Assembly (NCBI GenBank): GCA_973895155.1
Contig: OZ316891.1
Coordinates: forward strand, 16,767,651-16,831,650
DNA length: 64,000 bases
DNA from: Marsupella aquatica
Lineage: Eukaryota; Plantae; Marchantiophyta
Direction: 5' to 3'
This document shows positions 2,243-53,400 of the stretch, piece after piece; position 1 is the stretch's first letter, and each line of letters opens with the position of its first letter. The notes under the pieces are model-generated. The model saw nothing but the letters and a program-made list of their open reading frames with translations, did not search any database and was not told the DNA's origin. The translations under genes were made by a program, and so were the position numbers.

Positions 2243-2255
2243 TAGTCTTTGTTTT

Positions 2256-11820: not shown

Positions 11821-11855
11821 GCCGAGAGTGATGTTCATGAGGACGCTTCACAATT

Positions 11856-11868
11856 AAGCAGGGAGCTA
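11856..11868 (+). promoter_or_regulatory. Polypurine tract of family A
   Basis: AAGCAGGGAGCTA lies immediately before the TG start of the 3' LTR. Confidence 0.65.
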
Positions 11869-12868: not shown

Positions 12869-14329
12869 TGTCATGGGGATTCTATGTTTAGTAAGTTCCT
12901 CCTAAGTATAGCTTAGTAGTATAGGATAGTAGTTTAAATTCTCGCATATGCAGTCTATAGTGTGCATGCTACAGTGCACAACCTACAGTGTGCATGCTAC
13001 AGTACACGGTCTACAGTATGCATGCTATATTGTTCGATCTACAGTGTACGATCTACAGTGTGCATGCTACAGTGTGCATGCTACAGTGTACGATCTACAG
13101 TGTGCATGTTACAGTGTACGATCTACAGTATGCATGCTATAGTGTGCATGCTACAGTGTGCATGCTACAATGTACTGTCTACAGTTGCTCCGCTCACGTA
13201 ACTACAGTACTAGCACACTTACTTGCCTTGGATGTGTGACACATGGCTTCCATCCGTGTGCCATGCTTGATCCGTGTGCTTGAGATGTGAGCACTATAAA
13301 TAAAGAGGAGAGGGGCTCTCTCCCCTCACTCCCCATTTTTCATCAACTAAGTTGTGAAGTCTTAAAAATCCATTGGACTTGATGATCTCTTCTATGAATA
13401 TAACCCTTATGAAGTAGACCCACTCATGCACTCTTGCTTAGAGCTTTGGCTCGGCCAGAGATATTTTGTATGAGTCGGACCTTCAGAAAGTGTTGTCATT
13501 TGATAGGAGATGGTTATTAAGTTCTAAAGAGTTGAAAAGTGCTCAACAATGCCTTGACATCATATGCTCCCTTTTGGGTGAAATCCTTATGAAGTAGACC
13601 CACTCATGCACTCTTGCTTAGAGCTTCGGCTCGGCCAGAGGTATTTTGTATGAGTTGGACCTTCAGATAGTATTTTCATTCAAAAGAAGATCAACCTATT
13701 AAGATAAACATCTGCATGTATATACTTAGAGTTAACTCAATGCATGATATTTGTTTGAAATGAATGATCTTTTCGTTGAATGATTCTATCTCTTGTCATT
13801 AGAATAAAAATTAGTTGGATGGAATATATTTGATAGTACGATAATGCCTAGACCTGTACCTATTCTTCCTCTCCCTAATCCTTTCCTTATTAGAATTCAT
13901 GTACTCCAAAAAGAGATAATGCGCCAGCATATGACTTTTCACTTTGGAGAAGCATTTGCAACTGTGGTATTAAATTCAATAGAGCCAATTGTATACCCTT
14001 ATGTAGTTTACGGGCAGGATTGGGCTTGCACAATCTTTATCTTGTATTGAGATGGATCTCAACAAACCTCCCTCCGATGAACCTCCTGTTTCTTTCTCGT
14101 TGGGAGATATTTGTTTTGTAACTCGACCCAAGGTAGCTGCCAAGGAGGCAATAGTCCATAGGTATGGAGAAAAGGGTTATGATGTTGTGCTTTCATCCAC
14201 GGAACCGTTCCTTATAGTGTCTGCTACCCAGTCTAGAATAATAATCATGATCTTAACTTAAACTCTCTCTTGACACTAGCAGCCATAGGCCCGGTGCTTC
14301 CTCAAGAACCACATTTTTCCCCCCAGACA
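12869..14329. mobile_element. Solo LTR, family E (1461 bp)
   Basis: Termini TGTCATGGGG...CCCCAGACA. 4-bp TSD ATGT (12865-12868 and 14330-14333). Family-A sequence is continuous across it. Confidence 0.8.
12955..13185. repeat. 14-bp minisatellite, about 16.5 units (CTACAGTGTGCATG / CTACAGTGTACGAT)
   Basis: Tandem units read directly in exact 14-bp register. Confidence 0.9.
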
Positions 14330-28286: not shown

Positions 28287-31200
28287 AATATCTATTTGCT
28301 ACTTGCTAGCACGATGGTTATACCCGCCCGATTGTTGACTGCTATGTGGGCCTCCTCTGCATCCCTCAGCTCCCGCTTCCACTTCTCCCTTTCCTTGACC
28401 GCATCGGCCAACTCCCCCTGGGTCCAAGTCAGTTTATCCTTGATAATCTGATTATTAGACTGAGCGGTATCCAATTGCCCTTGCATGATGTTTAGCTCAT
28501 GCCGCTTAATCCACAGCTCATCTTGGGCTTTCTTGGCAGCCTTCAGGTCTTCTGCCTTGGCTACCTTCTCTCTAAGCCGTCGGATGACCTCGTCCTTCTT
28601 TCTTCTCTCCAAAGCCATCGCTTCTTCCAATCGGCGTTTCTCCAACATCTCCCTCTGGAAAAAAGGTCCCTGCTCCAACTCCTCCCCAAAGATGTTGAGC
28701 GCAAGTTCCCCACACATCTCCCCGTACTCCATGGCTCTTTCTTTAGCATAGGTGGAGTGAGTAGAAGTCATCGGCATCAACCACCGTGGCCTTTGTTCCC
28801 AAGTCGCCTTTCGTATTTCTTCTATCGTGGCTGGAGGGCTGCCCCGTCTTTCTGCAAGCCGCCGGATGTCTTCTGGCCATTCTCCCCCAAGTAAATCCTT
28901 CTCCCTAGCCGGGGTTGCCTCCTCTTCTTCCCTGAGTCGGTCCTGAAACTCCTGTGCCGTCTGCTTTATTCTGTCAAAGCTTGGGGGGAGCGACATCTGG
29001 TGGGGGAGACTCGGGGCTGCTCTGCTGGGTGGGGTCCCCTCAAACTACTCTTGGAAGCGTGGGGATGAAGCGGCCACAGGTCCTTATTCCTGGGACATGA
29101 TGGTCCAACCCATAGCTGGAGTCATCATTGCCGTAGTCCTCCACCACCTCCTCCCCAACTTGGACTAACAACTCCCCTTGCTGCTCTCCTGGTCTTGCTG
29201 TGAACATGGCTTCCTTCCGATCATAGCTCACAGGTCCTAGTTCCTCCTCCGGCTTCCAGGCTGTCTTCTCCCTCCACTTACAGCAAACAGGAGCTTTAGG
29301 CTGCTTTCCCTCGGCTTCGGGACTCGAGGCTCCTACATACATTCTAACCCCCGGCTCATGTTCCGGCCTCCTTCTTTCCTTGGCTTCGGTAAAGGGGTTT
29401 TCCTTCATGAGTCGGCTTAAGCCGACCTCTGAAGGAGTGTCCTGTACCTGTGCCATTGCCGTTGCCATTCTCTTTTCCTTCTCCAGCAATTTCAGTAGAT
29501 TCTGCATGCCTGGTTGCTGCATCGGCAAGTCCTCCGTCCTTGGCCTAAACACCTGCTTGATTGTAGGGCTGTCGGGCTGGTTTGGTTTCTCTATTGCCTG
29601 CCTCTATTTTGGAACCTCCTCTGGTGCCCTTGCCTGCAGTGGAAGTATCGGGGTAAAGATCTGACTTTGGGCATACCGGCACAACAGCGGATGTGATAGC
29701 CAAGCCGGGACACACTTCCCATGCCAATGGCCTGCTGTTCCTCCTTCAAGATCTTCTTCAGTTGGGTGAGGAGGTACCCGTTGTAGTCCCGGCTTGGGTC
29801 TAGCCTCTCTGCCAGGTATACTTGTGCCTTGCCGATCTCTGCCCTTGGCAAGTTGCAGTGCATGGTGACCCGCAAGAAATCAATCATTTCTCCGATGTGC
29901 GTGTTGGTGCAGGTGTTTTGAAAGAAGCCATTCTTTGTTGATGGCCCTGGAAACGACCAGAACTCCTTGTCTAGCAAGGTCTTCCAAGTATCTACTTTGG
30001 TCTTATTGCCCATCGGCAAGCCAAACACTTCGGCAATCACCCGGGGAGTGAGATGGAAATCCTTCCCATACACCCTTGTGGAATCGGTCTTGGGCTCCCA
30101 AGATCCCACAAATTCTAATAAGTTTGAATCCGGCACCTCCGGCTTCAGCCATGGTAATTTCACGAAGGCTTCCAAGCCAGATCTGGCCATGAAGCCCTGG
30201 TACTTCTGAGTCTGCATAGCCGTAAAGCATGCATCCTCTTCTTGTGCAAAGTGTAATTGCACTTCCTCGGGGAAGTGTCATCTCTTGTTGGAACGGCATT
30301 GATGGGGTCGACCTCCTCTTCTTCGGCTTCTCCCTGCCTCCTACTTCCCTGCTCGGCTGGCTTCCTGGGTGCCGCCGACCTCGTTCTCCTTGCAGAGGTG
30401 GTCTCTTCGTTGGCGTTCCCTTTTCTCTTCATAGCTGCTATCGTGGATGTTTCTCCGAGGATGGTTGCCTTTGTCCACCCCTCCGTGCTACCCTTCAACT
30501 CCTAGTGTATGTCGTTGCAGCGGTTGATGGCTTCCCAGATGCCGACTATTCTGTTCTCACAAAACAGAAGGTCGTCGAGTTCGTCACCAGTAGGTGTCCA
30601 CGGGAATTCAACCATGATGAGTTCTCCTCCTAAGAAGGTGGACTTCTGCAGCTCCCACAGTCAAGCGAGCTCCTGCCATTCTCAAACAGCTCTCTCCAAT
30701 CTTCGTCCTCGTAGGTCCCAATGTACTTAGTTGCCCGTTCTAACAGGCATCCCCAAAAATGAGCAGTTTGATTGACGTTGCTCATACCCTTCTTTGAATT
30801 GATAGTCGGTATCTGCTCCCGCCCCAAGTGCTTGCCTAAGCAACTGACAGTAGTTGGCTTCACGTAGTCATCTGCTTAGTTCGTGCTTGCAATTGAGCCT
30901 TCATTCCTTGCGATCAATCCTTACCCCCATCTTGCCTGTTCTTCCTTCCCGTTAGTTACCCATAGCCACCGGTACTTAGCGCGCCCTAACCCTAATCGTG
31001 TTCCCTCCCCCGGCGTCCTTACTTCCGGCCTCGGCTCGGGTTCCATAGCTACCCTCAATTGTTTATATTTTTCTTGTTTTTTGTTACTATACTAATGTGT
31101 TTCCAGGGTACACTCCTGATTTTTACCATTTAAACTGGCCTAGTGATTCCTGGCTAGGCATCACAGAAGGGTGAGGGGTACAAGCAACAGCAAGCGACCA

Positions 31201-33627: not shown

Positions 33628-36600
33628 GCTCAATTAGTGTACTCCAATCGGATTTTGTATATTTTGGCATGTGATCGACTCAAGATCGATTACATTAGTG
33701 TCTTGCACAATACTAGACCAGTAGGACTAGGTGGGGTGTAGCGAGCCATCTGGTTTTTATGGAAATGACCCCTAGTAGTCACCTGTCAATAGCGGTGTGC
33801 TAGTTGGCACCAAACATTTTGTAAACATAATTTATATAACTATACAGTCAGTGAATTTGTATTGAAGTAGCCATCAGTCTCAAGAGTCTGAGTTTCCAAC
33901 TCAATGGGAAACAATGATGATGAGCGTGCGGAATTTTGTAAAGCAAAATTTTGACTGTGGCAACATCCGGAAAAGTTCCTATGACCAGTAGTGCTTGCTC
34001 TACTTCAACTTGACAAACTTGGGATGATCTGCAGGTGTGGTACTAAGCACCGGAGGTCGGACGGCCAATAGCAAAGACATGACCAAAGCTTCACCTACAA
34101 AATTCACTGGTACGTTCCGCAACAGTGATTTATTTAGAGTTGAATAGGAAATTATTTAGGGTTGTTTCTTGGTTCTACAGTTATTTTATCAGGTGGAATG
34201 TGCTTTGGCGAACAGGGCTTGTGTTTGTAAAGGTAAAGCATGATTTTGGTTTTGTCATTTCTGCTATAGACATAGGAATTGCTTGCAAGGCCCATTGAAT
34301 TCAAGGAGACCATTGAGGAGTGACTGCCTCAATGGAGGCTGCTGGATTTCATCGTTGGCAGTCTAGCGCTCTTTGAAGGAGAAGCAGGTTGCCTGTGAGG
34401 GGGGGGGGGGCTTGGAACTGACACCCAATGGCAATGAGTGCTTAGAGCCATTGAGTCATAGTTGTTGGGTGGTCCTGGTTAGGAGCTTTGGAATGAATCT
34501 GTTCCATCCGAGTGTGTCTGTGAGTAAATTGGAGACTGTCCACCATACATGTTGAGGAGATTGATTGGAGTGTAGGGCCTAGCCTCGACTGCACATGGAC
34601 CAAGCACATAGAGAAGCTACGATCAATGGGACAAGCTTAAACGGGACAAGCTTAAACTAACCATGTGCAAATCCCAATCTCCCTTGTGCTTACACTGAAA
34701 CTGGAGTCCTTGCATGCAAAGGGTACAACCCTTCCCACCCAAAAGGAGAAAGGTGCAATGGATCTTGAACTTGGCAATGATCACGAGAAATGGCCGGGAT
34801 GGGGCAAGGCCCTTGTGGGATTGGTCCAGTGAATGTGGTCTCAACAGGTGGGCTGCTTTAGGTCAGTCTTTGTTAGAAACCCCATTTCTGCCACTCCTAG
34901 CTTGCTGGTCTGTCTGAGATGTTTAAATAACTTACTTCGGTGATTTCTAATCGAAATCATCATAGTTTTTGAGTCGACGTTCATGCTCCTTTTGTCTTCT
35001 GAAATGTTTGCAGGCCCGTGGGAGGTGGATGTAGAGTCGTCAGAGTGTTTCACAACATGCCCTCTGCCACTGTATTTCAAGTAGCCTCAGAGTCCGGAGA
35101 ACAAAAACCGGTGTCCTCATATAGTTATAGGAAAGGGGAAACCTTCGCAGATGCCAGACAGAAGTTGGCGGCACACTTTGATTTTGAGTTCCAATTCATA
35201 GATGTCAATCTATCTAGTAGGATGCGTGAGTCATGGGAGGTAGTAAATTCCTTAGAGGATTGTGGGGGAAAAGTGATCATCATCCCCAAAAACCCCAGGG
35301 ATGCTGCAAACTTGCCTATCCAAAGTAAGGCGGTTATGTCGCAACAAGTCCTTGGAAGCAGCAATGCCTCCAATGGGCCTGATATCACAATAAGTGATGA
35401 TCTTGCTTGGGATCGTGCTGGTTCTCCCATATTGGAAGAACCCCCACTTGAACAGTCAACACCAGACTATGTTGGCCCATTGGAGGAAGCCCGGGAGGAA
35501 GCTGACCCCCAGGTCACTTTGGAGTCGGAGTTAATGACCAATGAATTAAAGAGGACGTGGTCTTCATGTGTAGAAAAGTTTAAGGATCATATGGAGTCAA
35601 TACAATGCGCTCACCACAAGTGGAGGGTGAAAACCTGGGACAAAGACAATGTGCCATGTGGACACATTGAATGTTGCGAGTGTGACACTCGCCATGATGG
35701 GTCAGCAAAGGGTTTGATGGATAAGACATCCATCAATAATGCCTTCACCAACTTCAAAAAGAAGCATCTGATTTCATCAAAGCATGTCGCCCGTGTGGCA
35801 TCTAATAGGGGTGAGAGGCTGCACTCTAAGGAGGTTGCACGGAGGGCTCAAGCAAATACATTGACTGATCGAGCTATACTTGAGCAACACCTAAAGATTT
35901 TGCACAAGGTTAATGAGTCTCAAACTGTCGGGAGAGAGACTTTTACAGTTTTAGGTGATGTGGAGAAGGACCCCTTGGAGTTACACAAATTCAAACTTTT
36001 GTGCAATTTCTGTTCAGAGCACCTTGTGCTCATTCCAAAACAACGGAATTTGGAGCCCAATCTTGAAAGTCTGTCACGTCGTCAGCCTAGGCCTTAAGCC
36101 GGGTTTCGGCTTAGACAGGCACATCCTTCGTCAAAATGAGGGTTCGGGCAGGGAGGGATGCACGGAATGCACCTAACTCACGTAAACTAGCACTAAGTGT
36201 GCCTATTGTCATATACGGACACCTCCTAGGTATGGTTTGTGTTCCGCCGCCGAAACGTACCTCAGTCGATAGCAGGATTGACCCCGGCTTACGTGCTTCT
36301 AAGCCTTCGTGTTGTCCGCCTTCGATCCGGATTCGATGATATAGGTACTCAACCCGGGCTCGCAACCACTACCCGCAAGCTGCACCCCATGCCCGACTTG
36401 GGTAGTGCGTTCGGCCAAGCGTTGGCATACACGAGATTCACACATACATACACGCACAAGCATACAATCTCAATTTACACGAAGGAAATAATGGGGAAGG
36501 ATTTTACTACATAGGAGATATATGCGTACACTTAGTTGACCCGAAAGCTCCGGAATGAACAGGTCCAAGGCCGAGGGTGTGTGGTGCGTCCCATGGCTCC

Positions 36601-39094
36601 CCAAACCCAAGAAAACCCCCTTGCTCAAGCCGATTCCCGCAGGTTTCGTCCTTGGCGAGGCCGTTTCCGCCGCTTAGCGGCATGGGACGCTGCTAACTCT
36701 CCTTCTACTACTATTAACATTTTACACACATATACTGGACAGATCCTTCATCGGGTCATGAGATACTTAGCCGGCCTATTCTAGGTATGTTTGGATTCCG
36801 CCGTCGGAATGATCCCCAATTGGCTTGGTTAAGCCGCTAAGACCTCTCTCAGCTCAACACATCCAACTCTCACTCCCTTGCTACTTCCCTTCATTGATGT
36901 GGGCACTCTTCACACAAGTTAATGCGACACACAAATAGCAAAATGACTCATTCTGACTGAGTTATACCATGCACTTGCCATACAAACAGTACATCTCATA
37001 CACAAGCTCTGCAAACTAAGCCGTGAGGCCAACTCTATTCAGTTCTTAGGCATGAGGAAACATGAATATACACAAGGGTCACTGTATAACTAACCAAGAG
37101 CTTCTCTTACTACTTGATCCCAGCCCTGCTGGTGCAACTAAAAACTTGCTAAAGAAGAGGCCTTGGACTCCCCGCTGCCCAGGTATTTATCCTGGCAGCA
37201 GATCTGTCCAGAACTTTGCTGCGTAAGCTTAACCTATCCTAACTGTAATCTACCTATCTGTACAGCGAGGCAGGAGCACAAGTGTTGCTCCTACCAGTGG
37301 ATCCGCCATCCCACTAATCTAAGTGTCAGGGCCGTCTCCTGGTCTTGATCCTAATCCTAAACTTGGAGATCTGAGCCCGCCCTGCCCACTCACGCCTCCT
37401 ACCTCCACGTCCGCCCTTCCTAAAAGGAACGGCGCCCTTGCACCGTCATGACACCGGTGGCGGACCCTCAATGGACGCCCCCAACGCTTCCCCCGCAGCC
37501 ACTGCCGTCGGTCCGTCCTCTGACAGATTACCTGCCCCGGACCGAGTCAACTCTTCATCGGCTTGACTGGGTCCATCCTCGGCTTCGGCCCCAGCATCGG
37601 TCACGGCCCTCGATACGGCTTCGGCCTCCCCGGCATGTTCTAGTGGAGGATCCGGTACCTCGGCTTCATCAATAGCTGTCCCGGCCTCGGCCTTGCCATC
37701 CCCACCTTCTTCAACAGGTGGATCTACTGCCATAATCATGCCGGAGGTTGGTGCCGGGTTGACCTCCTGGGTCACAACAACTTGATAAGCCGTATAACTC
37801 CCAGACCCAGAAGGTTTCCGCTTCTTCTTCTTCCCTGTTTCGGTAGCTGGTCCCTTCCCCTTGCTACCTATCTCCGGCACCGGGGCGTGTGTCTCGGCTT
37901 GTGTTTCGGCTAGTACCCCTCCTGGTAACGGAGTTCCCACAATTGGAGTTGGACCAGATGAAGCTAAGCACTTAAATACTGCGGCCTGTTTCTTCAACCG
38001 CTCCGTTTGGTTGTCGGCCCGCCGCTGTAAGTTCTCCATCTTCCTGGTGGTTTCCTCCAACTCCTCCTGGGCTTCCTCTAGGTTCTTCCGTCCCTCCTGC
38101 AGCTCCTTTCTGGCTTCTTCCAATTCCAATTTTAAGGTAGCCCTCTCCTGCTGGGTTGCTCTTAGCTCCTTGTTGAGCTCCGCTACGACCTCAGACTCCA
38201 TCTTATTCATCTTGGCATAAGTCTGGTCGAGCTGGTCGTCCTTCTCACGCAGGTCGGCCTTGAAGCTGGCCGTCAGGGACGCAAGCTCCTACTGCAAAGC
38301 AATAATCTCTTGATAGGATTTCCCTAACTTGGCCTCCTTCTGCTCAAGGGCTCCGCGGATATCCTCGAGCTCTCCTTTCAACGCCCTCTCCCTTCTCTGA
38401 GTCTCCGCCATGGCCCGATTGTTGGCGGTTATGTGGGCCTCCTTTGCGTCCCTCAGCTCCTGCTTCCACTTTTCCCTGTCCTTGACCACGCTAGCCAACT
38501 CTCCTTGGGTCCGAGTCAGTTTATCCTTGATAATCTAATTGCCAGACTGAGCGGCATCCAATTGTCCTTGCATGATGTTTAGCTCATGCCGTTTAATCAG
38601 CAGCTCATCTTGGGCTTTCTTAGCCGCCTGCAGGTCTTCCACCTTGGCTTCCATCTCCCTAAGCCGTCGGATGACCTCGTCCTTCTTGCTTCTCTCCAAA
38701 GCCACCGCTTCTTCTAATCGGTGCTTCTCCAACATCTCCCTCTGGAAAAAAGGTCCCTGCTCCAACTCCTCCCCAAAGATGTTGAGCGCCAGGTCCCCAC
38801 GCATCTCCCCGTACTCCATGGCTCTATCTTTAGCATAGGTGGAGTAAGTAGAAGTCATCGGCATCAACCACCTCGGCCTCTGTTCCCAAGCCGCCTTGCG
38901 GATTTCTTCTACGGTGGCAAGAGGGTTGCTTCTTTTTCCGGCAAGCCGCCTGATGTCCTCCGGCCAATCTCCTCCTGGTAAATCTTTCTCCCTAGCTAGG
39001 GCTGCTTTCTCTTCCTCCCTAAGTTGCTCCTGAAATTCTTGTGTCGTCTGCTGTATGCCGTCAAAGCTCGGGGGAGCAACCTCTGGTGGGGGAG

Positions 39095-42000
39095 TGTGGT
39101 GCGTCCCATGGCTCCCTAAACCCAAGAAACCCCCCCCAGCGCAAGCCGATTCCCGCAGGTTTTGCGGTTGGCGAGGCCGTTTCCGCGGCTTAGCGGCATG
39201 GGACGCTGCTAACCTCCTTCTACTACTACTATTAACATTTTACACACATATACTGGACAGATCCTTCATCGGGTCATGAGATACGTAGCCGGCCTAATCT
39301 AGGCCTTCCCTTGTCTTCCCCTCCGTCTTGTTAGGTATGTTTGGATTCCGCCGCCGGAATGATCCCCAATAGGCTTGGTTAAGCCGCTAAGACCTCTCTC
39401 AGCTCGACACATCCAACTCTCACTCCCCTGCTTACTTTCCTTCCTCTATTAGTTGATGTGGGCACTCTTCACACAAGTTAATGCGACACACAAATAGCAA
39501 AATGACTCCTTCTGACTGAGTCATACCATGCACTTGCCATACAAATAGTACATCTCATACACAAGCTCTGCGAACTAAGCCGTGAGGCCAACTCTATTCA
39601 GATCTTTGGCATGAGGAAACATGAATATACACAAGGTCACAGTATGACTAACCGAGAGCTTCTCTTACTACTTGATCCCAGCCCGGCTGGTGCAAACTAA
39701 AAACTTGCTAAAGAAGAGGCCCTGAGCTCCCCGCTGCCCAGGTACTTATCCTGGTAGTGGATCCGCCTAATTCTTTGCAGCGTAAGCCTAATCTACCTAA
39801 CTGGATCTACCTATGTACAGCGAGGTAGGAGTACAAGTGTTGCTCTTACCAATGGAACCGCAATCCCACTAAGCTAAGTGTCAAGGCCGCCTCCTGGTCC
39901 TGATCCTAATCATAAACTTAGAGATTTGAGCCCGCCCTGCCCACTCACGCCTCCTCCCTCCACGTCCGCCCTTCCTAAAAGGAATGACGCCCTTGCACCG
40001 TCACGACACCGGTGGTGGATCCTCAATGGACGCCCCCAACGCTCCCTCCACAACCACTGCCGTTGGTCCATCCTCTGATAGATTACCTGCCTCTGACCGA
40101 GTCAACTTTTCATCGGCCTGACTAGGCCCACCCTCGGCTTTGGCCTTGGCTCGGAAATCATTCTCGGCTACGGCCTCAGCCTCAGCTACGGCCTTGGCCT
40201 CAGCTACGGCCTCCCCGGCCTGCTCAAGAGGTGGATCTGGGATACCGGCCTCATTACTGAGTAGTTCGGCTTGGGCCGCGCCATCCCCACCTTTGGTGAT
40301 AGCGGGATCCATTGTCGTGTTCATGCCGGACGTTGGTACCGGTTTGAGTACGGCTTGAGGGGTCGAATAACCTCCGGACCCCGAAGGTTTCCACTTCTTC
40401 TTCTTCACTATCTCCATAGCCGGTTCCTTCCCCTTGCCGCCAACGTCCGGCACCGGGCCGTGTGTCACGGCTGGTCCTTCGGCAATTACCACCCAGGGTA
40501 ACTGGTTTGCCCCAACGGGAGATGGACCTGATGCAGCTAAGCATTTAAATACTGCGGCTTGTTTCTTTAGCCGCTCCGTTTGGTTGTCGGCCCGCCGCTG
40601 TAGGTTCTCCATCTTCCTCGTGATTTCCTCCAACTCCTCCTGGGTCTCATCCAGGTCCTTACGTGCCTCCTCCAGCTCATTTTTGGCTTCCTCCAATTCC
40701 CTGTGGGCTTCCTCCAATTCCTTCTTGGTGGTAGCCCTCTCCTCCTGGGTTGCTCTTAGCTCCTTGTCGAGCTCCGCTACGACCCCAGACTCCATGTTAT
40801 TCATCTTGGCATAAGTCTGGTCGAGCTGGGCGTCCTTCTCCCGCAGGTCAGCCTTGAAGCTGGCCGTCAGGGACGCAAGCTCCTGTTGTAGCGCAATAAT
40901 CCCTTGATAGGATTTCCCTAACTCGGCCTCCTTCTGCTCAAGGGCCTCTGCGGATGACCTCGAGCTCTTCCTTCAGCGCCCTCTCCCTTCTCTGAGTCTC
41001 CGCCGTGACCCGGTTGTTGACTACTATATGGGCCTCCTCTGCATCTCTCAACTCCTTCTTCCATTTCTCCTTGTCCTTGATTGCGTTGGCCAATTCTCCC
41101 TGGGTCTGAGTCAGTTTATCCTTGATAATCTGATTATCAGCCTGCGCGGTGTCCAACTGCCCCCTGCATGATGTTCAGCTCATGCCGCTTAATCTGCAGT
41201 TCATCTTGGGATTTCTTGGCCGCCCTTAGATCTTCAATCTCGGCTTCCATCCTCCTAAGCCGCCGGATGACCTCGTCCTTCTTGCTTCTCTCTAAAGCCA
41301 CCGCTTCTTCTAATTGGTGCTTCTCCAACTGCTCCCTATGGAAAAAGGGTCCTACCTCCAACTCCTCCCCAAAGATGCCGAGCGCAAGTTCCCCACATAT
41401 CTCACCATACTCCATGGCTCTATTCTTAGCGTAGGTGGAGTAAGTAGAAGTGATCGGCATCGCCCATCGCGGCCTCTGCTCCCAAGCCGTCTTGCGGATC
41501 TCTTCAATCGTGGCTAGAGGTTTGCTTCCTTTTTCGGCTAGCCGCCTGATGTCCTCCGGCCAATCTCCTCCTGGCAAATCCTTTTCCCTAGCCAGGGCTG
41601 CCTTTTCTGCTTCCCTAAGTTGCTCCTGAAATTCCTGTGCCGTCTGCTTTATGCCGTCAAAGCTCGGGGGAGCAACATCTGGTGGGGGAGACTCGGGGCT
41701 ACTCTGCTGGTTGGGGTTCCCTCGAACTACCCTTGAAAGTGTGGGGATAAACCGGCCACAAGTCCTTACTCCTGGAACATGATGATCCGACCCGTAGCCG
41801 GAGTCATCATTGCTGTAGTCCTCTACCGCCTCCTCCTCGGCTTGGACTACCGGCTTCTCCCGCTGTTCTCCTGGTTCTGTTGTGAACACGGCTTCACCTC
41901 TCACCGGTCTTGGTTCCTCCTCCGGCTTCCGTGTTGATCTCTTGTTCTCCTTGTCGTGGCCGGGAGCTACGGCCTGCTTCTCCTCGGCTTCGGGACTTGA

Positions 42001-43869
42001 GGCTCCGACATACATCCGGACTCCCGGCTTGTGTTCTGGCCTCCTTCTCTCCTTGACCCCAGTAAAGGGGTTTTCCCTTGTAAGCCGGCTTAGGCCCACC
42101 TCTGGAGCAGTGTCCTGCATTGGTGTCGTTGCCGTTGCCGTTGCCGTTGCCGTTCTCTTTTCCTTCTCCAGTAATTTCAGCAGATTCTGCATGCCTGGTT
42201 GCTGCATCGGCAAGTCCTCCGTCCTTGGCCTAAACACCTGCTCGATTGTAGGACTGTCGGGCGGGTTGGGTTTCTCCGTTGCCGGCGTCTGCTCCGGGAC
42301 CTCCTCCGGTGCTCTTGCCGATAGGGGGAGTACTGGGGCAAAGATTTGACTTCTGGCATATCAGCACAACAGCGGAATGTGATAGCCAAGCCGGGACACG
42401 CTTCCCACGCCGATCACCTGCTGTTCCTCCTTCAAGATCTTCTTCAGTTGGTTGAGGAGGTACCCGTTGTAATCCCGGCTTGGGTCTAGCCTTTCTGCCA
42501 GGTAGACCTGAGCCTTGCCGATCTCTGCCCTCGACAAGTTACAATGCATGGTCACCCGCAAGAAGTCGATCATCTCTCCTATGTGCGGGTTGGTGCAGGT
42601 GTTCCAGAAGAAGCCATTCTTCATTGATGGCCCGGGGAACGACCGGAACTCCTTGTCAGGCAAGGTCTTCCTGGTATCAACTTTGGTCTTATTGCCTATC
42701 GGCAAGCCAAACACTTCGGCAATCACCTTGGGAGTAAGATAGAAATCCTTCCCATATATCCTCGTGGAATTGGTCTCGGGTTCCCATGACCCCATGAATT
42801 CTAATAGGTATGAATCCGGCACCTCCGGCTTCAGCCATGGTAATCTTACAAAGGCCTCTAAGCCGGATCCGGCCATGAAGCCTTGGTACTTCTTGGTCTG
42901 CATGGCCGTAAAGCATGCATCCTCCTCCCGTGAAAAATGTAGTTGCACCTCCTCTGGTAGGGTTGCTGCCCAGCCTTTCCAGGTGTCATCCCTGGTTGGA
43001 ATGGCATTGATGGGATCGTCCTCCTCCTCTTCGGCTTCTCTCTGCCTCCTCCTCTGCTGTTCTGCTAGCTTCTTTGGTGCCGCCGACCTCGTTCTTTTTG
43101 CCGGGGTGGCCTCTTCGTTGTTGTTCCCCTTCCTCTTCATTTCGGCTCCCGTGGATGTCTCTCCTAGCACGGTTGCCTTTGTCCACCCCTCCGTGCTACC
43201 CTTCAACTCCCAGTGTATGTTATTGCAGCGTTTGATGGCTTCTCAGATGCCGACGACTCTATCTTCGCAAAACAGAAGATCGTCGAGCTGATTGGAAGTA
43301 GGAGTCCACAAGAACTCGGCCTTGATGAGTTCGCCTCCTAAGAAAGCCGTCTTCTGCAGCTCCCACAATTGAGCGAGCTCCTGCCGTTCTCGAGCTGCCC
43401 TTTCTGATTCTTCATCCTCGTAAGTCCCAATGTACTCAGTTGCCCATTCAAACAGGCATCCCCAAAAATGTGCCGCTTGATTGACGTTGCTCATACCCTC
43501 CTTAGGTCGATCGTTGGTATCTACTCTCTCCCCGAGTGCTTGCCTAAGCAGCTGACAGTAGTTGGCCTCCTGTAGTTGTCTGCCTAGTTCGTGCTCGCAA
43601 ATGAGCCACCATTCCCTGCAAGCGCTCCTTACCCCTCTCCTCTTCCGGTCCTTCCTCCCGTTGATCCTTCCTAGCCACCGACGCTTAGCGTGCCCTAACC
43701 CTAATCTTATTTTCACCCCCAGCGTCCTTACCTCCGGCCTCGGCCCGGTTCCATAGTCGCCCCTAATTGTTTATATTTTCCTTGTTTTGTCCCTATACTA
43801 AGGTGTTTCTAGGGTGCACTCCTGCTTTACCCACTTAACTGGCCGAGTGATTCCTGGCTAGGCATCACA
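39095..43869 (-). mobile_element. Family-B solo LTR, copy 3, uninterrupted (4775 bp)
   Basis: TG...CA termini and perfect 5-bp TSD GGGAG (39090-39094 and 43870-43874). Confidence 0.92.
40001..43754 (-). pseudogene. Family-B LTR-encoded long ORF (about 1250 aa in consensus)
   Basis: Successive ORF fragments, with breaks at different places in the three copies. Motifs GLEAFVRLPW, LLEF, IAEVFGLP.G and KNGFF.NTC, followed by a long coiled coil. Confidence 0.72.
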
Positions 43870-44067
43870 GGGAGACTCGGGGCTACTCTGCTGGGTGGGG
43901 TCCCCTCGAACTACTCTTGGAAGCGTGGGGATAAACCGGCCACAGGTCCTTACTCCTGGAACATGATGATCCGACCCATAGCCGGAGTTATCATTGCTGT
44001 AGTCCTCCACCTCCTCTTCCACTGCTTGGACTCCCGACTTCCCCCTCTGTTCCCCTGGTCCTGCCGT

Positions 44068-46289
44068 TGTCCTGAGGATAAGCAAAGAGGTGGGGAAAGA
44101 GGCTCAAGGGACACGCAGGGTGTATGGCTGCTTGAGATAGGAAACGGTTGCAAACAAGATAAAGTAGACCCTAAGCACTTCCTTTCATCCACATCATCAC
44201 AAGCAAGCAAGCAAGCAAGCATGCATGCTTTCGAAACTCAAGCCATTTACATACTCATATCCAATCACAATCAAAATAACTAGTTCAAGCTTCCCAATGT
44301 AATCCTCACAAGTCTAAGCCCAACATTCAATTGGTCACCATTCCTTTTCCAACACTTGATTGCACACAATCCCTTGCAACCTTCTAAGGTACACAAGTTC
44401 AAGTGTACATTCAATGTGGTCAAGTTAAGGGTCACTCTTGGTTGTGGCTAAGACAAGTGGGACATCCAAAGGTATGCAAGGCATCTCTATGCACCATTCA
44501 AACATCCAACTTTCGAAACATGGGAAACTACTTTCGAAAAGTGACCTAGGGTTGGTCAACAAACTCCTTAACAAACATGGAATTGACCTTAGTCCCTTCC
44601 TCTAGTAGAACCACCAAGTATAATCCACAAACAACCCAATCCATCAATCGAGAATGCCTTCACTCTTTACTCTTGCAACTTCCCTCATGCATAATAACTA
44701 CTTTCGAAAGTACCTTCATTCAACCCATCTACTTTCAAAAACACCTTCAAGCTCACAACAACATTCGAAAATGGCATGAAGACATTCATTCTAACTATTC
44801 CATTACTCATAGCCAAAGCAAGGCATCAACACACATCTCAAAAACAAGGATACCTCTCCTCTAAATGCATAGCAAGAAGGCACATGTAGCATCATGGCCT
44901 CCAAGTAAAAACATGGGTCACAAGCAAGACCCTCCTATCAAAAATGAATCATCAACCAAGCATTCAAAATCCCTCCATAGCCTATCCAAGCTTCAAAACC
45001 CTAGTCTCCTTCTCTCATACTTCCTTCTATCAACCAAATCTACTTTCGAAGCTTCAAGTCAAGGAGTTTACAAGAGAGTAGGACTTCTTAGTGAGCCATC
45101 TCTAATGCAAGACTCCCAAGCTTCAACAAGATTAGGTCTCATCTCCTCTAAGCTTTCGAAAATCTCCTACAAGTCCATTCTCCTCAAAACTTGAAGCAAC
45201 AAACCTACATTCGAGTATGCCTTCTTGTGGACAATCTCTCATGCAAGCTCCTTATACTTCCTACTCACATCCTACCTCCTTCCTAAGGCTTCAAGTCAGC
45301 CTCTCCTACATTCGAAACCTCTCTCCAAATCCCTAGAAAAACCATCACAAAACTCAATCTCTTCACATTCAAAGCTTCTACTCCATCTATCTCTTCACAA
45401 AATCGCCTCTACATCTCCTACCCTCAAAATCCTAAGGCCATGGCCAAGGAGGAGGGCTCCCCCTTCACTCATGCCTCATGCTCGAGCTCCCCTCAAGAGG
45501 TTCGCTCCTACAACTAAAAATGGGACTTAACACTCCAAAACGGCAAAACGGCAGCACTTCAGCAGCATCTAACCTTCGAACCCTTGGCCACTCGAACTTC
45601 CTCCTTTAGTATCCACGTGGGAAGGCCCAGGGCACCCACAAGCTCCTCCACTTATGGTTTTAATCCTCGTTGAATCATAGCCCTCGATCTCACACCAATT
45701 AGATCCAACGGCCAAAAATGAGCCAAAAAACCCCTCCTTAGTAACTTGCAAACCAAAAGAGCTTCGACCTTTTTGAAAAAGCCACGACCTCCACCAAGCC
45801 CTAACTCATATCTCCACCTTAAATCCAAACCATCCATTAACCAAAACCAAGATCCACCGTTGAAGTAGATACATTGAATCTGGTCCATTTAACACAAAAA
45901 TTTGAATCCGGTCCAAATCTCACAAAACTGATGCACTTGGTCCAAACCCTCTTACATGCCTTGAACCTGGTCACCTCCTCCATGTATTCAATGAACCTGG
46001 TCACCATGTCGCCAAAACCCTTGCTTGTCGAGCAAGCAACCTCCATTCCGCCGGTCCGCCAAATGATAACTTAATCGCTGGTCACAAATGAAAAACATAC
46101 CTCACAATAGTAACAAGGGTGGGTAGGCTCGACCTCATCCCTACCTTGACCCTCATAACTCTACTTCCTCCTTCACCTTGGTCAAGTTAGCTCAAGTCAA
46201 GTCAACTTGCCCAAGTTAGAAGCAAAATTGGTTTCAACTTCCTTCACAAAACATGAGGATTCCTCCTTTAGGATGGAAACCTCATGACA
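44068..46289. mobile_element. Solo LTR, family C (2222 bp)
   Basis: Termini TGTCCTGAGG...CCTCATGACA (9/10 inverted match) and 4-bp TSD CCGT (44064-44067 and 46290-46293). Confidence 0.82.
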
Positions 46290-48656
46290 CCGTGAATATG
46301 GCCTCACAGATCACGGGCTCTTGTTCCTCCTCTGGTTTCCAGGCTGTCCTCTCCCTCTGCTTTCCGTGGGAAGGAGCCTTAGGCTGCTTTGCCTCCGATT
46401 CGGGGCTTGAGGCTCCCACATACATTTGAACTCCCGGCTTGTGTTCCGGCCTCCTTCTCTCGTTGGCTCCGATAAAGGGGTTTTCCCTCCTGAGTCGGCT
46501 TAGGCCGGCCTCTGGGGCAGTGTCCTGTACCGGTGCTGTTGCCGTTGCTGGTGCCGTTCTCTCCTTCTCCAGCAATTTTAGCAGATTCTGCATGCCTGAT
46601 TGCTGCATCGGCAAGTCATCTTTCCTTTGCCGAAACACCTACTCGATCGTAGGACTAGCAGGCTGGTTGGGCTCTTTTGTTGCCGGCCTCTGCTCCGGAA
46701 CCTCCTCCGGTGCCCTTGCCGATAGGGGAAGTACTGGGGAAAAGATTTGACTTATGGCATACCGGCATAACAGCGGCATGTGATAGCCAAGCCGGGACAC
46801 GCTTCCCATGCCGATCACCTGCTGTTCCTCCTTCAAGATCTTCTTCAGTTGGTTGAGGAGGTACCTGTTGTAATCCCAGCTTGGGTCTAGCCTTTCTGCC
46901 AGGTAGACCTGAGCCTTGCCGTTCTCTGCCCTCGGCATGTTACAATGCATGGTCACCCGCAAGAAATCGATCATCTCTCCGATGTGCGGGTTGGTGCAGG
47001 TGTTCCGGAAGAAGCCATTCTTCGTTGATGGTCCTGGGAACGACCGGAACTCCTTGTCAGGTAAGGTCTTCCTGGTATCAACCTTGGTCTTATTACCCAT
47101 CGGCAAGCCAAACACCTCCGCAATCACCCGGGGAGTGAGATAGAAATCCTTCCCATACACCCTCGTGGAAATGGTCTCGGGTTCCCATGATCCCACGAAT
47201 TCTAATAAGTCTGAGTCCGGCACCTCCGGCTTCAGCCATGGTAATCTTACGAAGGCTTCCAAGCCCGATCCGGCCATGAAGCCCTGGTACTTCTTGGTCT
47301 GCATGGCCATAAAGCATGCATCCTCCTCCCGTGCAAAATGTAATTGCACTTCCTCTGGTAGGGTTGCCGCCCAGCCTTTCCAGGTGTCATCCTTTGTTGG
47401 AATGGCATTGATGGGATCGACCTCCTCCTCTTCGGCTTCTCCCTGCCTCCTGTTCTGCTGCTCTGCTGGCTTCCTTGGTGCCGCCGACCTTGTTCTTTTT
47501 GCCATGGTGGCCTCCTTGTTGTTGTTTCCTTTCCTCTTCATCTCGGCTGCCGTGGATGTTTCTCCTAGCACAGTTGCCTTTGTCCACCCCTCCGTGCTAC
47601 CCTTCAACTCCCAGTGCGCGTCGTTGCAGCGGTTGATGGCTTCCCGAATGCCGACAATTCTGTCTTTGCAAAACAGAAGGTCATCGAGCTGATTGGCAGT
47701 AGGAGTCCACAAGAACTCGGCCTTGATGAGTTCTCTTCCTAAGAAGGCAGACTTCTGCAGCTCCCACAGTCGAGCGAGCTCCTGCCGTTCTCGAGCTGCT
47801 CTCTTCGATTCTTTGTCCTTGTAAGTCTTAATGTACTCAGTTGCCCGTTCGAACAGGCATCCCCAAAAATGTGCCGCTTGATTGACGTTGCTCATACCCT
47901 CCTTGACTCGATCGTTGGTATCTGCTCCCGCCCCAAGTGCTTGCCTAAGCAGCTGACAGTAGTTGGGCTTCCGTAGTCGTCTGCCCAGTTCGTGCTTGCA
48001 AATGAGCCACCATTCCTCACGAGCGGTCCTTACCCCTCTCCTCCTTTGGTCTTTCCTCCCGTTGGTTACCCCTAGCCGCCGATGCTTAGCGCGCCCTAAC
48101 CCTAATTGTGTTCTCTCCCCCGACGTCCTTACCTCCGGCCACGGCCCGGGTTCCATAGCCACCCTTAATTGTTTATATTTTCCTTGTTTTTGTTACTATA
48201 CTAATGTGTTTATAGGGTACACCTCCGTTTCCCCATTTAATTGGCCTAGTGATTCCTGGCTAGGCATCACATGGTGTACACTACAACGGAGCCCGGCTCC
48301 GCGCTCTCCCAGCGAGCTTAGTCCCACACCCTCCCCTCGGTACTCTTTCACTCCCAGAGGTCGGGACTCCCCGCACATACCGCGAATGTCCAACACTGAG
48401 ACTAAAAACCCCCCTGCCTCTACCGAGGGGTGCACTAAATACTAAGGGCCGAGGAACAGAGTGCCCTCGCATCCGAAGATTCACTAACTAAGGTCCTAAC
48501 TAAGCTGGCTGTCAGGCCGGAAAACGGCTTGTCTTATTAGAAGATCCTAATCTACGCCAATTGTACAGCATGGCAGTGCTGCTCTAACTAGGGCAGGTGC
48601 TTGTCCCTATAGCCTAATTGAGCTATTCCTAACTCTACTCTAATCCTACTCTGCCG

Positions 48657-50488
48657 CTAGTGTCTGGCACGCTTGCCAGAACTGCCTGAGTGGGAGCGGC
48701 TATCCCGCTACCTTCTGAGTCTGTCGGTGTCCTACTTGAGTAGCTGGACCTGGTCCAGCAGAGATTTGTTTTCCCGCTTCGCCGCGTCTGCCTCTTCTAC
48801 GGCCTCCTGGCATGCCTCCTCCAGTTGCTGGGTGTCGCTTGTCAACTTGTCCACCAACTGGGCCTATTTAGTGGCTTCTCCTTGAAGCCGTGCCACCTCT
48901 GCCTTCAGGGCGTCAATCTTGGCTGTGTCCCATTGAGACCTGGAATCAGCTTCCTCCAGATCCTTTTGCCAATTGACGGCTTGCCCCTGCAAACTGTCAA
49001 TCTTGGTTTGGAGCCGCGCAATCTTGGCGTCCTTTCCGAGCCCGGCCTGTACTGCCAACGCTGCTTGGGCTCTAGCCTTGGTGACCTGGTCCTCCGTGGC
49101 CGTTACCTGAGGCCGTAGTTGTTGGAGTTCAGCCTCCAAGGTTGCCACTTCGTCCTTCGGGTAGGCAGACTCAACCCGATATCGCTCTATTCTCTGCGCA
49201 GTCTCTGCCTGCGCATGTCCTGCCCTTACTACTGCAACCAACTCCTGGTTGAAGAAGTAGGCCACCCTCCGGGCCATGTATTCCCCGGTGTCCCAAGAGA
49301 TATGTTGCGAGAAATCTCCCAACAACCCGTTCAGAAAAGTGCCCGGCGCAAAGAGTTCCGGATGGTATAGATTGTGTCCTTCTGGATTCGGGCACGGACA
49401 GACTCCAACCCGTGCGGGAGTAGGGGTGGACACATCCAGCCCTTGAGGTAAGTCGGTCAAAGGGGCTGGTTCCACTGGAGGTGGATGGTTCTCCTGCACC
49501 ACCGTGGGGGGTGGCGGAATCTCCCTGACCACCGTGGTATCTGCTTCGGGTACGGCTTCATCCGGCCTGGCTTTGATGGCATTGTCCTGATTGATCGCGT
49601 CTAAGGTTGCAATAACGTCAATGGGTATGCCCGGCGGGGCGGCGGGTTGCGGGGCCGGGGTAGCAGGACTTGCAGCTGCCAGACTTTGGGCCTCGGGCTG
49701 CGGTCGCCTTACCTGGGCTGGGAACACCCATTTTGGCGGGGTCAGCTTAGGCTCATTGAGACGTGGGAGGCTCCGGCAGTCAAAATGAGCGTACCACTCG
49801 AGGATGATTTCGACGTGGCTAGCGAAGTACGCCCTCCCACCAAGGTACAAAGTCTTCCTTCTCCGCTCCATCTCCTTGTGGAACTTCTTGACAAAGAAGG
49901 ATGCCCACTTCCTGGGCCGATAGTTCTCCACCTGGATAACCTGAGCGGCCGATATTTCTCCTCTAGGTTCCATCATGTGGAGGGCATACCGCTAGAACTC
50001 TAGGCGTTCTGCTACCTCCGGGATGAGGCACGTCCTCATTAAGAACCCATTGTCCACTACCCCTTCGGCCGGAAAGCTAGATGACTGGTATTTAGCTCCC
50101 TTGCCCTAGGAGCCCGCGACTCTACCCGGTTTATTCCCTCGGGTAGGCCAAAAATCATCTTCAGACGTGCCTCATCGAGACACATCACTCTCCCGTGCGC
50201 TCGGGTTTGTTGACAGGCCTTGTCAAAGTTCTGAATGAACTCCGACATATCCTGTCCGTAATACCTGTTTTCGTTCCAAGGGAGAGAGGCGAGGTGCTCA
50301 AACCCTTGGGTCTTCAGATAGCATGCATGCTTGGGGTGGAGGATGTTCTTGTGAATGCTGTCCCCCATGCAATGCATGGTCAGCTTGGCTACTGCAACCG
50401 TGGCCAAAGGCAACCCGGATACGGTTGCGGACTCCTTCCTCTTCCTACCCCGAGACTGATTCCCGGGGTGACTAGAAGAAGGGGACAT
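48657..50488 (-). pseudogene. Family-A LTR-encoded ORF, most complete copy
   Basis: GFEHLASLPW, MSEF, MIFGLPEG, DNGF..RTC and KWASFF, then a P-rich linker and coiled coil. A few frameshifts and stops. Confidence 0.72.
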
Positions 50489-53400
50489 CTCTCCATCCTC
50501 TCGGTCGGGTGGTGGTAGCTCGACTGCTGTGAGTATTGATGTCGGGGCCGCTAGTGTTACCGTGTTGTCCCCTCAGGCTTGCTGGGGTGGTGCGGGGTTG
50601 TTTGTACCCCGCGGTCATCGATTCAGAGGAGGGTGAGCCTCCTCGTCCTCGGAGCTGATATGTACCGTATTCACCACGGATCATACTCAGAGAGGTGGTG
50701 GAACCGGTGGCGGTGATCAGCTTGGCTGAGGCCGAGGAGGTGCAGGTGCAGGTGCGGGTACGGGTACGGGCACGGTTTGGCCAGCACTGGTCATTGAGGG
50801 TAGAGTTGCCATGAAATTCTGCAAGTGCCGGTGGAGATTTCTGACGCAAGGGAAGATGGTCCTGTCGACTGGGTGGTGTTGAATTCGCCGTTGATGATAG
50901 CCCGGACCCGAGCGGGGATGTGGTCAAAGTGGTGCCACTGTAAGTCAATCGTGCCCGGAATATTGAAGACCTCGTCCGGAAGCCGAAGCAGTGCCTCCCA
51001 AAAGCCGATGTATTTGCCTCCGTCGAAGAAGTACCCTGATAACTCTTTGGGTCGGTAAAGCTCGCTCTGGGACGGGTACTCAAAGTTAAGGAGATAGTGG
51101 TGGCGGCCTGCTAGGCGGATGGCTCTCTCATACTCGCGTTCGATCTCATATCAGCGCGGATTGGCGTGTTTCAATGAGTCAGCCAAGTGCCCTCCAATAG
51201 ACAGGAACTGAGTCCAGAATTGTATGGCCGAACTGGAAAGGATCGTGTGCAACATTCAGGGGAGATAGCAGGTGACTAAGGAAAAGCGAGAGAGGTGGGA
51301 TCAAAGCTGGCACGTGGATTGGAGAGCTTGGTGCACTGCAAAGGATCGGCTCCCTTTTATACCCTGAGAGCTCGTCGATCGCCCGACGCCTCCTCGTCGA
51401 TTATAGGTCGAGCCTTTCACGCTCATAGTGTACTAGCCCCTTCTCCAGTCCGGGTCAGCTCGTGTCAGTGGCCGCCTCCCGGAGTTTGTTATACGGACCT
51501 GAGGGAGGGGGAAAAAGGGCCCATTACACGCTCTCAACCCGGGCGTGCGAATGGCGACCCGCCGCCAGCCCGAACATGAATTCCCCTTATTGACTAATGA
51601 TTTCCTACTCATAATGCCTACCTAAATACTATCGTTATGCTAATAATAATGGCCTAAGATACCCCTAACGTGCGTGCTAAGCGCGGTTAGACCAAATTAC
51701 TCATTACCCGCCGTACCGGCAGCGTCACAAAGTCATTGCAATAGCATCAGTCATCTAAATTATGTTGCAAGGAGTCAAATGCCTGCTAGAGGAGATCCTG
51801 TTCTGTCAGGACGGCCTGGAAGACCTCGCCAAGTGGATGCGAGGGATGTCAAACAAAGGACCATCCAAGGCTTTTTAACTCAGAGGCCGAGTGGAGGGCC
51901 GTCTTGTAGTTCCTCTTGAATGTCTATAGAAGAAGAAAGAGGTGGGCACTTATCTCTGTTGTGTTGGGGTCTTTGGCGTGATGCGGTCCAATATGGTTCA
52001 GAAACCAGGCCTATTAAGGGAATCTTAAACGACCAACTTAAAGTTGAGGGACTTTGGCTTGCAGAGCCCTTGGTCGTAGAAGATGTGTTCTGTGTAACCG
52101 GGCAGGAAACTTATCACATTGAGGGTCTCTTTAGGCACAAGCATTGCAGTAGATTATCAAAACTTGGGGGTGGCTTTAAAGACTTGACATGTGAACATTG
52201 TTTTAGTATAAAAGGGGAACCCGACTTTAGGCTCAGGGTGGCTAGAGAATTCAAAGCCTCTGAGATGAGAAAAGAGGAAGCAGCGGGACTGGGAAGGGTC
52301 GTAGGTTAGATTACCTCACGGTTCCCAAGGTCCAGCAACAAGCAAAGTGTTATAGGAATCGAGTTCTGAGAGAACGAAAGCTGCAAAGAATCCTTAGTCA
52401 TAGATTATTGATGGTTGAGGCCCGTGTCCCCCCGATTGGGGAAGTCTGCCTTAATTACCAGGAACCAAATAAGGCCACAGTGCTGAAGTTTTGTCAATCC
52501 ATAGTCTTGGCACACAAAAGGGGTGCCTTTGGAGGGAGAGGTGCCCTGTGGGATATGTTGTCAGACATTGCTTCGAACCTAAACAAAGAGAAGTAGGGTT
52601 ACCGATATAAGGCAGGAACAAAGCTTCTTTGCCAAACACTCTTTTTGCATGGTGGGAGGCGCGTTGTTGATTGTCTTTCTAGTAATGGAATAGGTCCTAG
52701 TTTGAACACCCTTCAATGAGATAGGAGAGGGATGGTTGTGTTCCGTGCAGGAATTCATGCATCTCAATTCAAGTTCATCGCCAAAGTGTTCTCACAATTA
52801 AAGGATTGACTTGGCATATGTGGGCCGATTCCCTGTTTTATGGCAGAGGATGAGATTGTAGTGAAAAAAACCGTGAGGTAATTACTATCTCACTTCATAA
52901 CCTTTGGGCTGATGTACCTGCTGTTGTATATTTGAATATGTACACCAAAAAGGCAGCAACCTAAAAAGTCCTTCACCTTACGTTTGCAGATGGCTGCCAA
53001 AACAGGATACTCTTATTGGGTTTTGTGGGAAGAGAACTGAAGGCCACCAATGTGTAGCAGGCTTGGAGGTCAAGGTGGGCGAGGGAGAAGCTGGGTTTAC
53101 TGCCATCATCGATTCTTTTGAGAATTTCCGTGTAGGGAACCTAGCAAGGTGTATCATGGTCAATCCATTGGTTGTAGGGCTTCCTCACTTGGCTGTAATG
53201 GGCGATATAACATGTAATAAGTTTGATGCCCCTTGGGTCAGGCGCCAGTGAGACAAAGTGGAATCTCTCTGGACAACTCATTGCCTGGATTCGGTGGGCC
53301 GTCTATTGGGACATGCCAGTGATGGGGATTCACGAAGGAGAAAGCTTATGTTGGAGGATTATAGTGGGAGAGGGATTGAGGGGCCAAGGCAAAACCTGGG

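Follow-up and report, generated by a model that had tools for sequence, protein, structure and literature searches.

In the human immunodeficiency virus (HIV) the nef gene overlaps U3, and the long terminal repeats (LTRs) of HIV and of mouse mammary tumour virus (MMTV) are near 1.3 kb or less. Non-chromovirus Ty3/gypsy elements can have LTRs of up to ~5 kb, and their extra open reading frames (ORFs) are placed in the internal region in the available sections of two surveys (PMC7264820, PMC6317226). For Tat elements, the accessible part of PMC4408406 gives a core plus coiled coil as the layout of the extra ORFs and reports none for Tat lineages I and II or for Tat-like elements of mosses; Tat elements of liverworts that lack added RNase H appear in the available portion of PMC13468544. 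Here we analyzed a 64,000-nucleotide stretch of the liverwort Marsupella aquatica (assembly GCA_973895155.1, contig OZ316891.1, positions 16,767,651 to 16,831,650 of the forward strand; hereafter the window), in which an LTR retrotransposon, family A, carries a long sense ORF within its own ~4-kb LTR, and in which two further families, B and D, form units with a sense ORF of their own.

The order of insertion events was worked out by self-comparison of the window and reading of the junctions. A solo LTR of family A on the − strand contains unit B1, which contains unit C and unit B2, and a full-length A element on the + strand sits inserted in unit B3, with unit D inserted in its gag gene. Family A is defined by the following parts, given with their target-site duplications (TSDs) where relevant.

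48277..51729, − strand: 5’ part of the family A solo LTR (unit nt 1-3453), with the TG end, TATAAAA at 51361, the ATG at 51256 and the complete accessory ORF
36072..36579, − strand: 3’ part of the family A solo LTR, with the CA end
48659..51256, − strand: family A accessory ORF, ~865 codons, broken by stops and frameshifts
1017..2242, + strand: what remains of the 5’ LTR in the full-length A element; it holds the last 110 ORF codons, and its left part was displaced by another element
2256..2272, + strand: primer-binding site (PBS) of A, TGGCGCTAGA..., 13 nt past the LTR end at 2242
2372..11901, + strand: degenerate gag-pol of the full-length A element, with zinc knuckle, protease, reverse transcriptase (RT), RNase H (by eye) and integrase
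11856..11868, + strand: short polypurine tract (PPT, 11856-11865) of A with its CTA spacer, AAGCAGGGAG-CTA, directly before the 3’ LTR
11869..16739, + strand: 3’ LTR of the full-length A element, its ORF with deletions and frameshifts, and with a 4-bp-TSD insertion at 12869-14329

A sequence-only reading of this DNA had set the LTR limits of family A by the PPT, the PBS and a TSD-flanked solo copy and had put the ORF inside them, and both points were confirmed by junction reading and self-comparison, with the ORF occupying unit nt 474-3071 of 3961. The solo copy (51729->36072, − strand) begins with TGTGAC, finishes with GTGACA and measures 3961 bp net of nested insertions, being a single LTR between the duplication AAGTC/AAGTC (36067-36071 and 51730-51734, 5/5 positions). 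The sequence behind the PPT is matched by the 5’ end of this copy, and that ahead of the PBS by the 3’ end. Because the other element ends at ~1017, only the last 110 ORF codons are visible in the 5’ LTR of the full-length element, whose own 5’ end the window does not show. We rejected the candidate in which the true LTR of A is only the 1.2-kb repeat at 1011-2242, since this repeat starts mid-ORF at the CA end of the other element and since the solo copy shows how long the whole LTR is. The 5’ and 3’ LTRs are the closest pair, 5.8% apart, and differ from the solo copy by 8.2% and 8.9%. Within the ORF, an N-terminal domain is followed by a conserved core (~50380-49760), a Pro-rich linker and a coiled coil. 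The same early codon of the ORF reads TGA in the two full A copies (~51153-51151 and 12446-12448); either a CpG hotspot was struck twice or the source element had an already shortened ORF. The insertion in the 3’ LTR includes a 14-nt tandem repeat at 12921-13200.

The internal region of A has the Ty3/gypsy gene order, with gag followed by protease, RT, RNase H and integrase, a PBS after the first and a PPT before the second TG...CA repeat; Pfam gives zf-CCHC, an aspartyl protease (below cut-off), RVT_1, Integrase_H2C2 and rve in this order, RNase H being recognized by eye. The integrase frame reaches the PPT and continues 11 codons into the 3’ LTR, indicating that the internal region holds gag-pol only and no extra ORF. 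We take the PBS TGGCGCTAGA to be other than the tRNA-Met type, with tRNA-Asn presumably a candidate, and this, the 5-bp TSD and an integrase ending at the PPT with no chromodomain match are features of the non-chromovirus OTA (Athila, Ogre/Tat) group; no tRNA gene was found in the 64-kb window. Criteria for OTA, Phygy and Selgy were those in the available portion of the lineage table in the PMC6317226 supplement, by which Phygy and Selgy (4-bp TSD, tRNA-Trp or tRNA-Ala PBS) are ruled out by the 5-bp TSDs. The added RNase H required for the Tat clade according to Neumann 2019 has neither room nor a match in the translated pol of A, which on these sequence features would fit Athila or liverwort Tat Z2. 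The 13-nt PBS offset exceeds the 0-5 nt tolerated by the Neumann 2019 pipeline, so that such elements would score as PBS-less.

The other units of the nest that bear on the ORF, together with the unrelated unit C, are as follows.

36580..48271, − strand: B1, a TG...CA unit of 4686 bp net, located within the A solo LTR and split in turn by C and B2
39095..43869, − strand: B2, an uninterrupted TG...CA unit of 4775 bp, TSD CTCCC/CTCCC (5/5)
28326..31165, − strand: 5’ part of B3, with the first ~900 ORF codons; B3 continues on the far side of an 11-kb DNA transposon, at 17202->16740
3075..6701, + strand: D, a TG...TA unit of 3627 bp, TSD GTGCG/GTGCG (5/5), which interrupts the gag gene of full-length A
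3917..5602, + strand: accessory ORF of D, 561 codons long and interrupted by a single stop (codon 31)
44068..46289, strand unassigned: C, an unrelated solo-LTR-like insertion with TGTC...GACA ends and a 4-bp TSD, CCGT, without related ORF

The description of B and D as units that start with TG, have 5-bp TSDs and carry a sense ORF was borne out, with the qualification that the B1 duplication (CACCA/CACCC) agrees in 4/5 positions and that D finishes with TA. The B1 ORF (48156->37446) runs through 1234 codons in a single frame with 3 stops, and that of B2 (43754->40001, core domain 43017->42364) has stops and frameshifts; D has 528 open codons from its second ATG, at 4016, and is the sole compared copy keeping such a length. 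The opening 9 nt, TGTGATGCC, are common to A and B, and D opens with TGTGAT, the same six. Terminal direct repeats were found within none of A, B1, B2 and D, so that short terminal repeats of B’s or D’s own were rejected, and no convincing remnant of a PBS or PPT was seen inside the units. If B and D were instead separate mobile units (non-autonomous, DNA-type or internally deleted) that share the accessory gene with A, the absence from the window of an internal region for either, the TA end of D and the absence of nucleotide similarity among the three families past the first 6-9 nt would be accounted for. We regard this as very unlikely, because B1, B2 and D have no Pfam match to a transposase and no long terminal inverted or direct repeats, and because 5’ terminus, TSD length, ORF orientation and layout are the same as in the proven LTR of A. 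Family B is very probably an LTR, seen here as solo-like units, and D, seen as one such unit, is probably an LTR as well.

The three ORFs have in common a core of ~180 residues and a coiled coil, and the parallel motifs noted earlier by eye are collinear in an alignment of all three. Between A and B the core is 24% identical over ~180 amino acids (BLASTP E 4e-17). With the B2 core as query, HMMER found 22 matches at E<=0.001 among 1.84 billion representatives; P0005 and P0009 were dropped as spurious, having unrelated Pfam domains. A profile was made from 17 database matches and no window sequence, with P0006, P0016 and P0021 also excluded. Against 1298 six-frame window segments it scored 195 bits for B, 79+54 for A and 16.6 for D (E 3e-4), the top segment outside A, B and D having E 0.57. 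None of 500 shuffles of D attained D’s score, and hhalign of alignment A2 against D gave a probability of 73% and E 3e-5 over 141 columns. Homology among the ORFs, on which the sequence-only reading depended, was therefore found by BLASTP for A and B and by profile for D, and judged from these comparisons the three are related. Among ten clusters of relatives that were looked up, four are named Calypogeia fissa proteins, five unnamed assembly proteins and one a mixed hypothetical cluster; the relative P0030 is likewise from Calypogeia fissa, and the N-terminal domain of A faintly matches three relatives (E 0.02-0.1). Accessions of Calypogeia fissa proteins in this family are CAM6122807.1, CAM6082161.1, CAM6082530.1 and CAM6090539.1. 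In word-indexed protein searches, 2/7996 candidates matched alignment A2 and none did with D as query (0/7997 and 0/247), and no related locus was found among 276 and 227 pattern matches in metagenome contigs.

Selection was assessed among copies of A and B; D, with one copy, lies outside these tests. For B, the ratio of nonsynonymous to synonymous substitution (dN/dS) over the ORF was 0.30 (0.25-0.37) for B1/B2 and 0.26 for B1/B3, and over the core 0.22 and 0.12, respectively, with shifted-frame controls at 0.75-1.13. Because transitions dominate, we added a context-matched test in which substitutions were reassigned randomly to sites matched for base and for CpG context. Synonymous counts were 227 versus 143 (z 8.6) and 182 versus 113 (z 7.9) for B, and 64 versus 49.5 (z 2.5, P 0.009) for A, whose frame+1 control gave P 0.11. 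A ratio near 1 would have spoken against the earlier reading; it lies below 1, clearly for B and modestly for A, and the substitution patterns indicate that the B ORF is under purifying selection and argue moderately, with a weaker signal, for the same in A. The 860 nt of 3’ non-coding DNA in B diverge by 0.078, four times less than dS (0.34), as expected of cis-acting LTR sequence.

Six copies were compared (A solo, A 3’ LTR, B1, B2, B3 and D), and all six have in-frame stops, frameshifts or nested insertions. The 3 stops of B1 imply ~2% neutral decay per copy, which would account for a core dN of 0.04 between B1 and B2; a core nearly invariant while the B family replicated, with resting copies now decaying, would explain these values. 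The selection signal is that of replicating ancestors, not of resting copies. Both the breakage of 6/6 copies and this rate of decay suit the explanation that the gene matters only in replicating elements and that the ORF is retained in silenced, decaying solo LTRs as a by-product without biological effect, which is compatible with the anatomy described above and contradicts only the inference of the earlier reading. Old nested copies from a single window make a poor sample for this purpose, D keeps its 528 open codons, and the A solo LTR keeps TATA, ATG and a TGTA-rich 3’ tract; weighing both sides, we find the by-product explanation close to an even call with a slight lean in its favor. The earlier proposal that each solo LTR leaves behind a whole surviving accessory gene stands in so far as solo units keep the full coding length, and a working gene is unsupported given that every compared copy is broken.

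No Pfam family matches the core, Pfam coiled-coil matches having been set aside as noise, and a sequence search of the PDB with the core gave no match. A model of the B core, at a low predicted local distance difference test score of 43.8, has helices, a beta hairpin and further helices, and its best fold-search hit (Z 3.0) was uninformative. The protein is predicted to consist of a conserved alpha/beta core, a disordered linker, basic clusters and a coiled coil. In B the word pattern W-x-P-E-T...T...A...GLP may resemble the plant mobile domain (PMD), and in a language-model atlas B and D have a same-size top unnamed cluster (279 amino acids, 72 members, 0.91). An env-like membrane protein might be considered because of the sense orientation and the coiled coil, which some env-like extra ORFs have according to the available part of PMC7264820. 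The highest 19-residue hydropathy of 1.05-1.28 in A, B and D corresponds to no transmembrane helix, basic clusters are present instead, and an env-like identity is scarcely credible. By analogy with what is guessed for PMD/ATHILA-type extra ORFs, our best guess, put forward tentatively, is that the protein acts in the nucleus on the element’s own chromatin state or integration; host PMD proteins function in silencing, and an anti-silencing role has been guessed for transposon copies (PMC5418596, in its available sections).

Units of A, B and D are built alike, from a leader, the ORF and then 0.9-1.1 kb of non-coding DNA, with 560-1230 codons making up 46-79% of a 3.6-4.8 kb unit. A solo LTR of family A thereby has TATA, ATG, stop and a candidate 3’-end region in this order. 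The TATAAAA of A (LTR nt 369) lies 105 nt ahead of the ATG in both copies and is its only canonical TATA, and the 3’ part of A has 10 TGTA (shuffle mean 4.6, P 0.005). The ORF stop of D is followed immediately by a CCGG-repeat cluster and TATAAAA (5685), with 5 CCGG in the 82 nt ahead of the TATAAAA, and a second CCGG cluster lies ahead of the ORF. The AACCGG/CCGGTT-type word occurs in four D clusters (near the 5’ end, before the ORF, in the ORF and before the downstream TATA), AAACCGG being found 11 times against 0.2 expected; the clusters are possible binding sites for a host factor or for the element’s own protein.

We favor a placement of the ORF in U3 with a separate upstream promoter, as in MMTV sag (PMC9412291), which would have been reached by a shift of the PPT from the Athila-type 3’ position. 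Alternatively, the ORF could lie in R/U5, with the A TATA at LTR nt 369 as sole promoter, so that the accessory mRNA would arise when polyadenylation occurs early, in the 5’ LTR, and the genomic RNA by read-through. Gag-Pol would need splicing or internal initiation, and the arrangement would be like that of the 5’ extra ORF in Ogre-type elements, but with a PBS shifted downstream of the ORF. The only canonical A TATA does precede the ORF in both copies, a TGTA-rich tract does follow it, B has TATA-like words also at nt 58 and 95, and a donor-like GTGAGT stands 97 nt past the A 5’ LTR, a weak lead given an estimated chance of ~6%. By contrast, the canonical TATA and repeat cluster of D come after its ORF, the U3 of B would span only ~100 nt, and common origin favors a single layout; the R/U5 placement is rather unlikely to our judgment.

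Taken together, family A is a Ty3/gypsy element with a long sense ORF in its 4-kb LTR, and we lean moderately towards a view in which units B and D are solo LTRs from related families of Tat/Athila-like type, with a homologous gene, likely an accessory gene for a nuclear protein, in U3 under its own promoter. An ancestor with the usual layout of pol, extra ORF, PPT and short LTR would have moved to a purine tract at the pol end, and this would have turned the extra ORF, together with its promoter, into U3. The resulting LTRs would each comprise a 5’ leader with a TATA box, the ORF and a conventional part of 0.9-1.1 kb with the genomic-RNA promoter and polyadenylation region. During reverse transcription the ORF would be copied once from the RNA 3’ end and duplicated into both LTRs, and LTR-LTR recombination, favored by two 4-kb repeats around a 6-kb interior, would leave the gene in solo LTRs.

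Several observations weigh against this U3 placement and the wider interpretation. A canonical TATA after the ORF is absent in A (only TATTTA) and B (GATAAATA in B1 and GATAAGTA in B2), which for A means that the ORF may be in R/U5 rather than U3, and no individual TATA match exceeds chance expectation. The PPT of A is short (10 nt with one C), D has TA rather than CA at its 3’ end, and none of the B and D copies in the 64-kb window lies next to a PBS, PPT or gag-pol. Homology of D is remote, with a pairwise BLASTP E of 0.24. The Pfam families ATHILA PF03078, Transposase_32 PF20167 and PMD PF10536 have no match in the window cores, the 22 database matches or 18 aligned members, and the ATHILA and Transposase_32 clusters in the next atlas rows for B and D (0.87-0.89) are leads only. 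The frame+1 control of A by the simple method (dN/dS 0.46) is as low as the true frame, so that selection evidence for A is moderate, and the broken state of all six compared copies counts on the same side.

Neighboring elements complete the nest. Unit C is one of three TGTC...GACA units without accessory ORF (44068-46289, 12869-14329 and 1-1017), two with 4-bp TSDs and one cut by the window edge, which form a second LTR lineage in the same nest. B3 is split by an 11.1-kb DNA transposon at 17203-28325, which is flanked by a 9-bp TSD (GCCCGATTG) and has inverted ends that start with G and match imperfectly. A transposase-like gene lies on its + strand at 24024-27853, with no Pfam match and a Cys/His motif that by eye is like SWIM. 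On the − strand a ParB-like DGNHR word was recognized by eye in frames at 21015-21608, and a frame at 17970-18602 matches an N6/N4 DNA methylase (PF01555, E 4.4e-6, above the Pfam cut-off); these features suggest a Mutator-like element carrying a DNA methyltransferase-like gene. On the host side of the nest, 52264-55364 and 35003-36097 hold frames of another degenerate transposon, for which a weak TNP-like GTP-binding match (E 0.028) suggests a P-element-like transposase, and the frame at 35003 is interrupted by the A solo LTR.

Plant LTRs are treated as non-coding, and a selected gene of 560-1230 codons in an LTR changes where to look. An LTR-resident ORF could explain why basal Tat-like elements seemed to be without extra ORFs in the available part of PMC4408406, the 4-5 kb length of some non-chromovirus LTRs, and the many unnamed liverwort proteins of the accessory family in gene predictions. 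A broader proposal, which we hold to be doubtful, is that early-branching liverwort Tat/Athila-like elements keep the accessory gene in the LTR as a promoter-ORF-polyadenylation cassette, that solo LTRs go on supplying the protein in trans, and that the PMD/ATHILA-type ORF predates seed plants. If true, the host’s main deletion route for these elements would spread their chromatin-acting gene, and the PMD/ATHILA-type extra ORF would have been overlooked by internal-region surveys. The age and original position of accessory genes, and solo LTRs as expressed genes, become questions testable from assemblies and long reads.

Compared with known systems, no ORF in an LTR is described in the available portions of PMC3485330, PMC11728184, PMC11963269, PMC7466625, PMC12885004 and PMC13468544, and for a plant LTR-resident ORF our literature search found none, only MMTV; subscription papers (Steinbauerova 2011), Repbase and the Neumann 2019 element table could already describe such LTRs. 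OTA extra ORFs, as presented in the accessible sections of PMC4408406, PMC6317226 and PMC11728184, are alike in a non-chromovirus Ty3/gypsy host, 5-bp TSD, non-Met PBS and a core with C-terminal coiled coil, and the atlas leads for B and D point weakly to their PF03078/PF20167. They differ in being internal, located ahead of gag or in the stretch from pol to the 3’ LTR, whereas here the ORF is inside the LTR, the interior is gag-pol only and there is no Pfam match. Liverwort Tat Z2 ‘zero structure’ elements have the Ty3/gypsy domain order without added RNase H, and accessory-protein relatives come from liverwort, but the available description gives no LTR length or LTR ORF (PMC13468544). Rice Retrosat2, RIRE3 and RIRE8 have very long (3.2-kb) LTRs and many solo copies, with ORF0 upstream of gag-pol and outside the LTR (PMC3485330, available text), and maize Grande has an accessory gene with its own promoter and a nuclear product, but antisense in the 3’ internal region and outside the LTR (PMC11963269, available text). 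MMTV sag/naf, according to the accessible part of PMC9412291, is an ORF in U3, duplicated at both ends, with a U3 promoter upstream, the same model as proposed here, although the host element is a vertebrate retrovirus and the protein is unrelated. Thus the element class is known and the accessory-gene class likely known, and the position of the gene inside the LTR has no counterpart among the plant elements described in the accessible literature.

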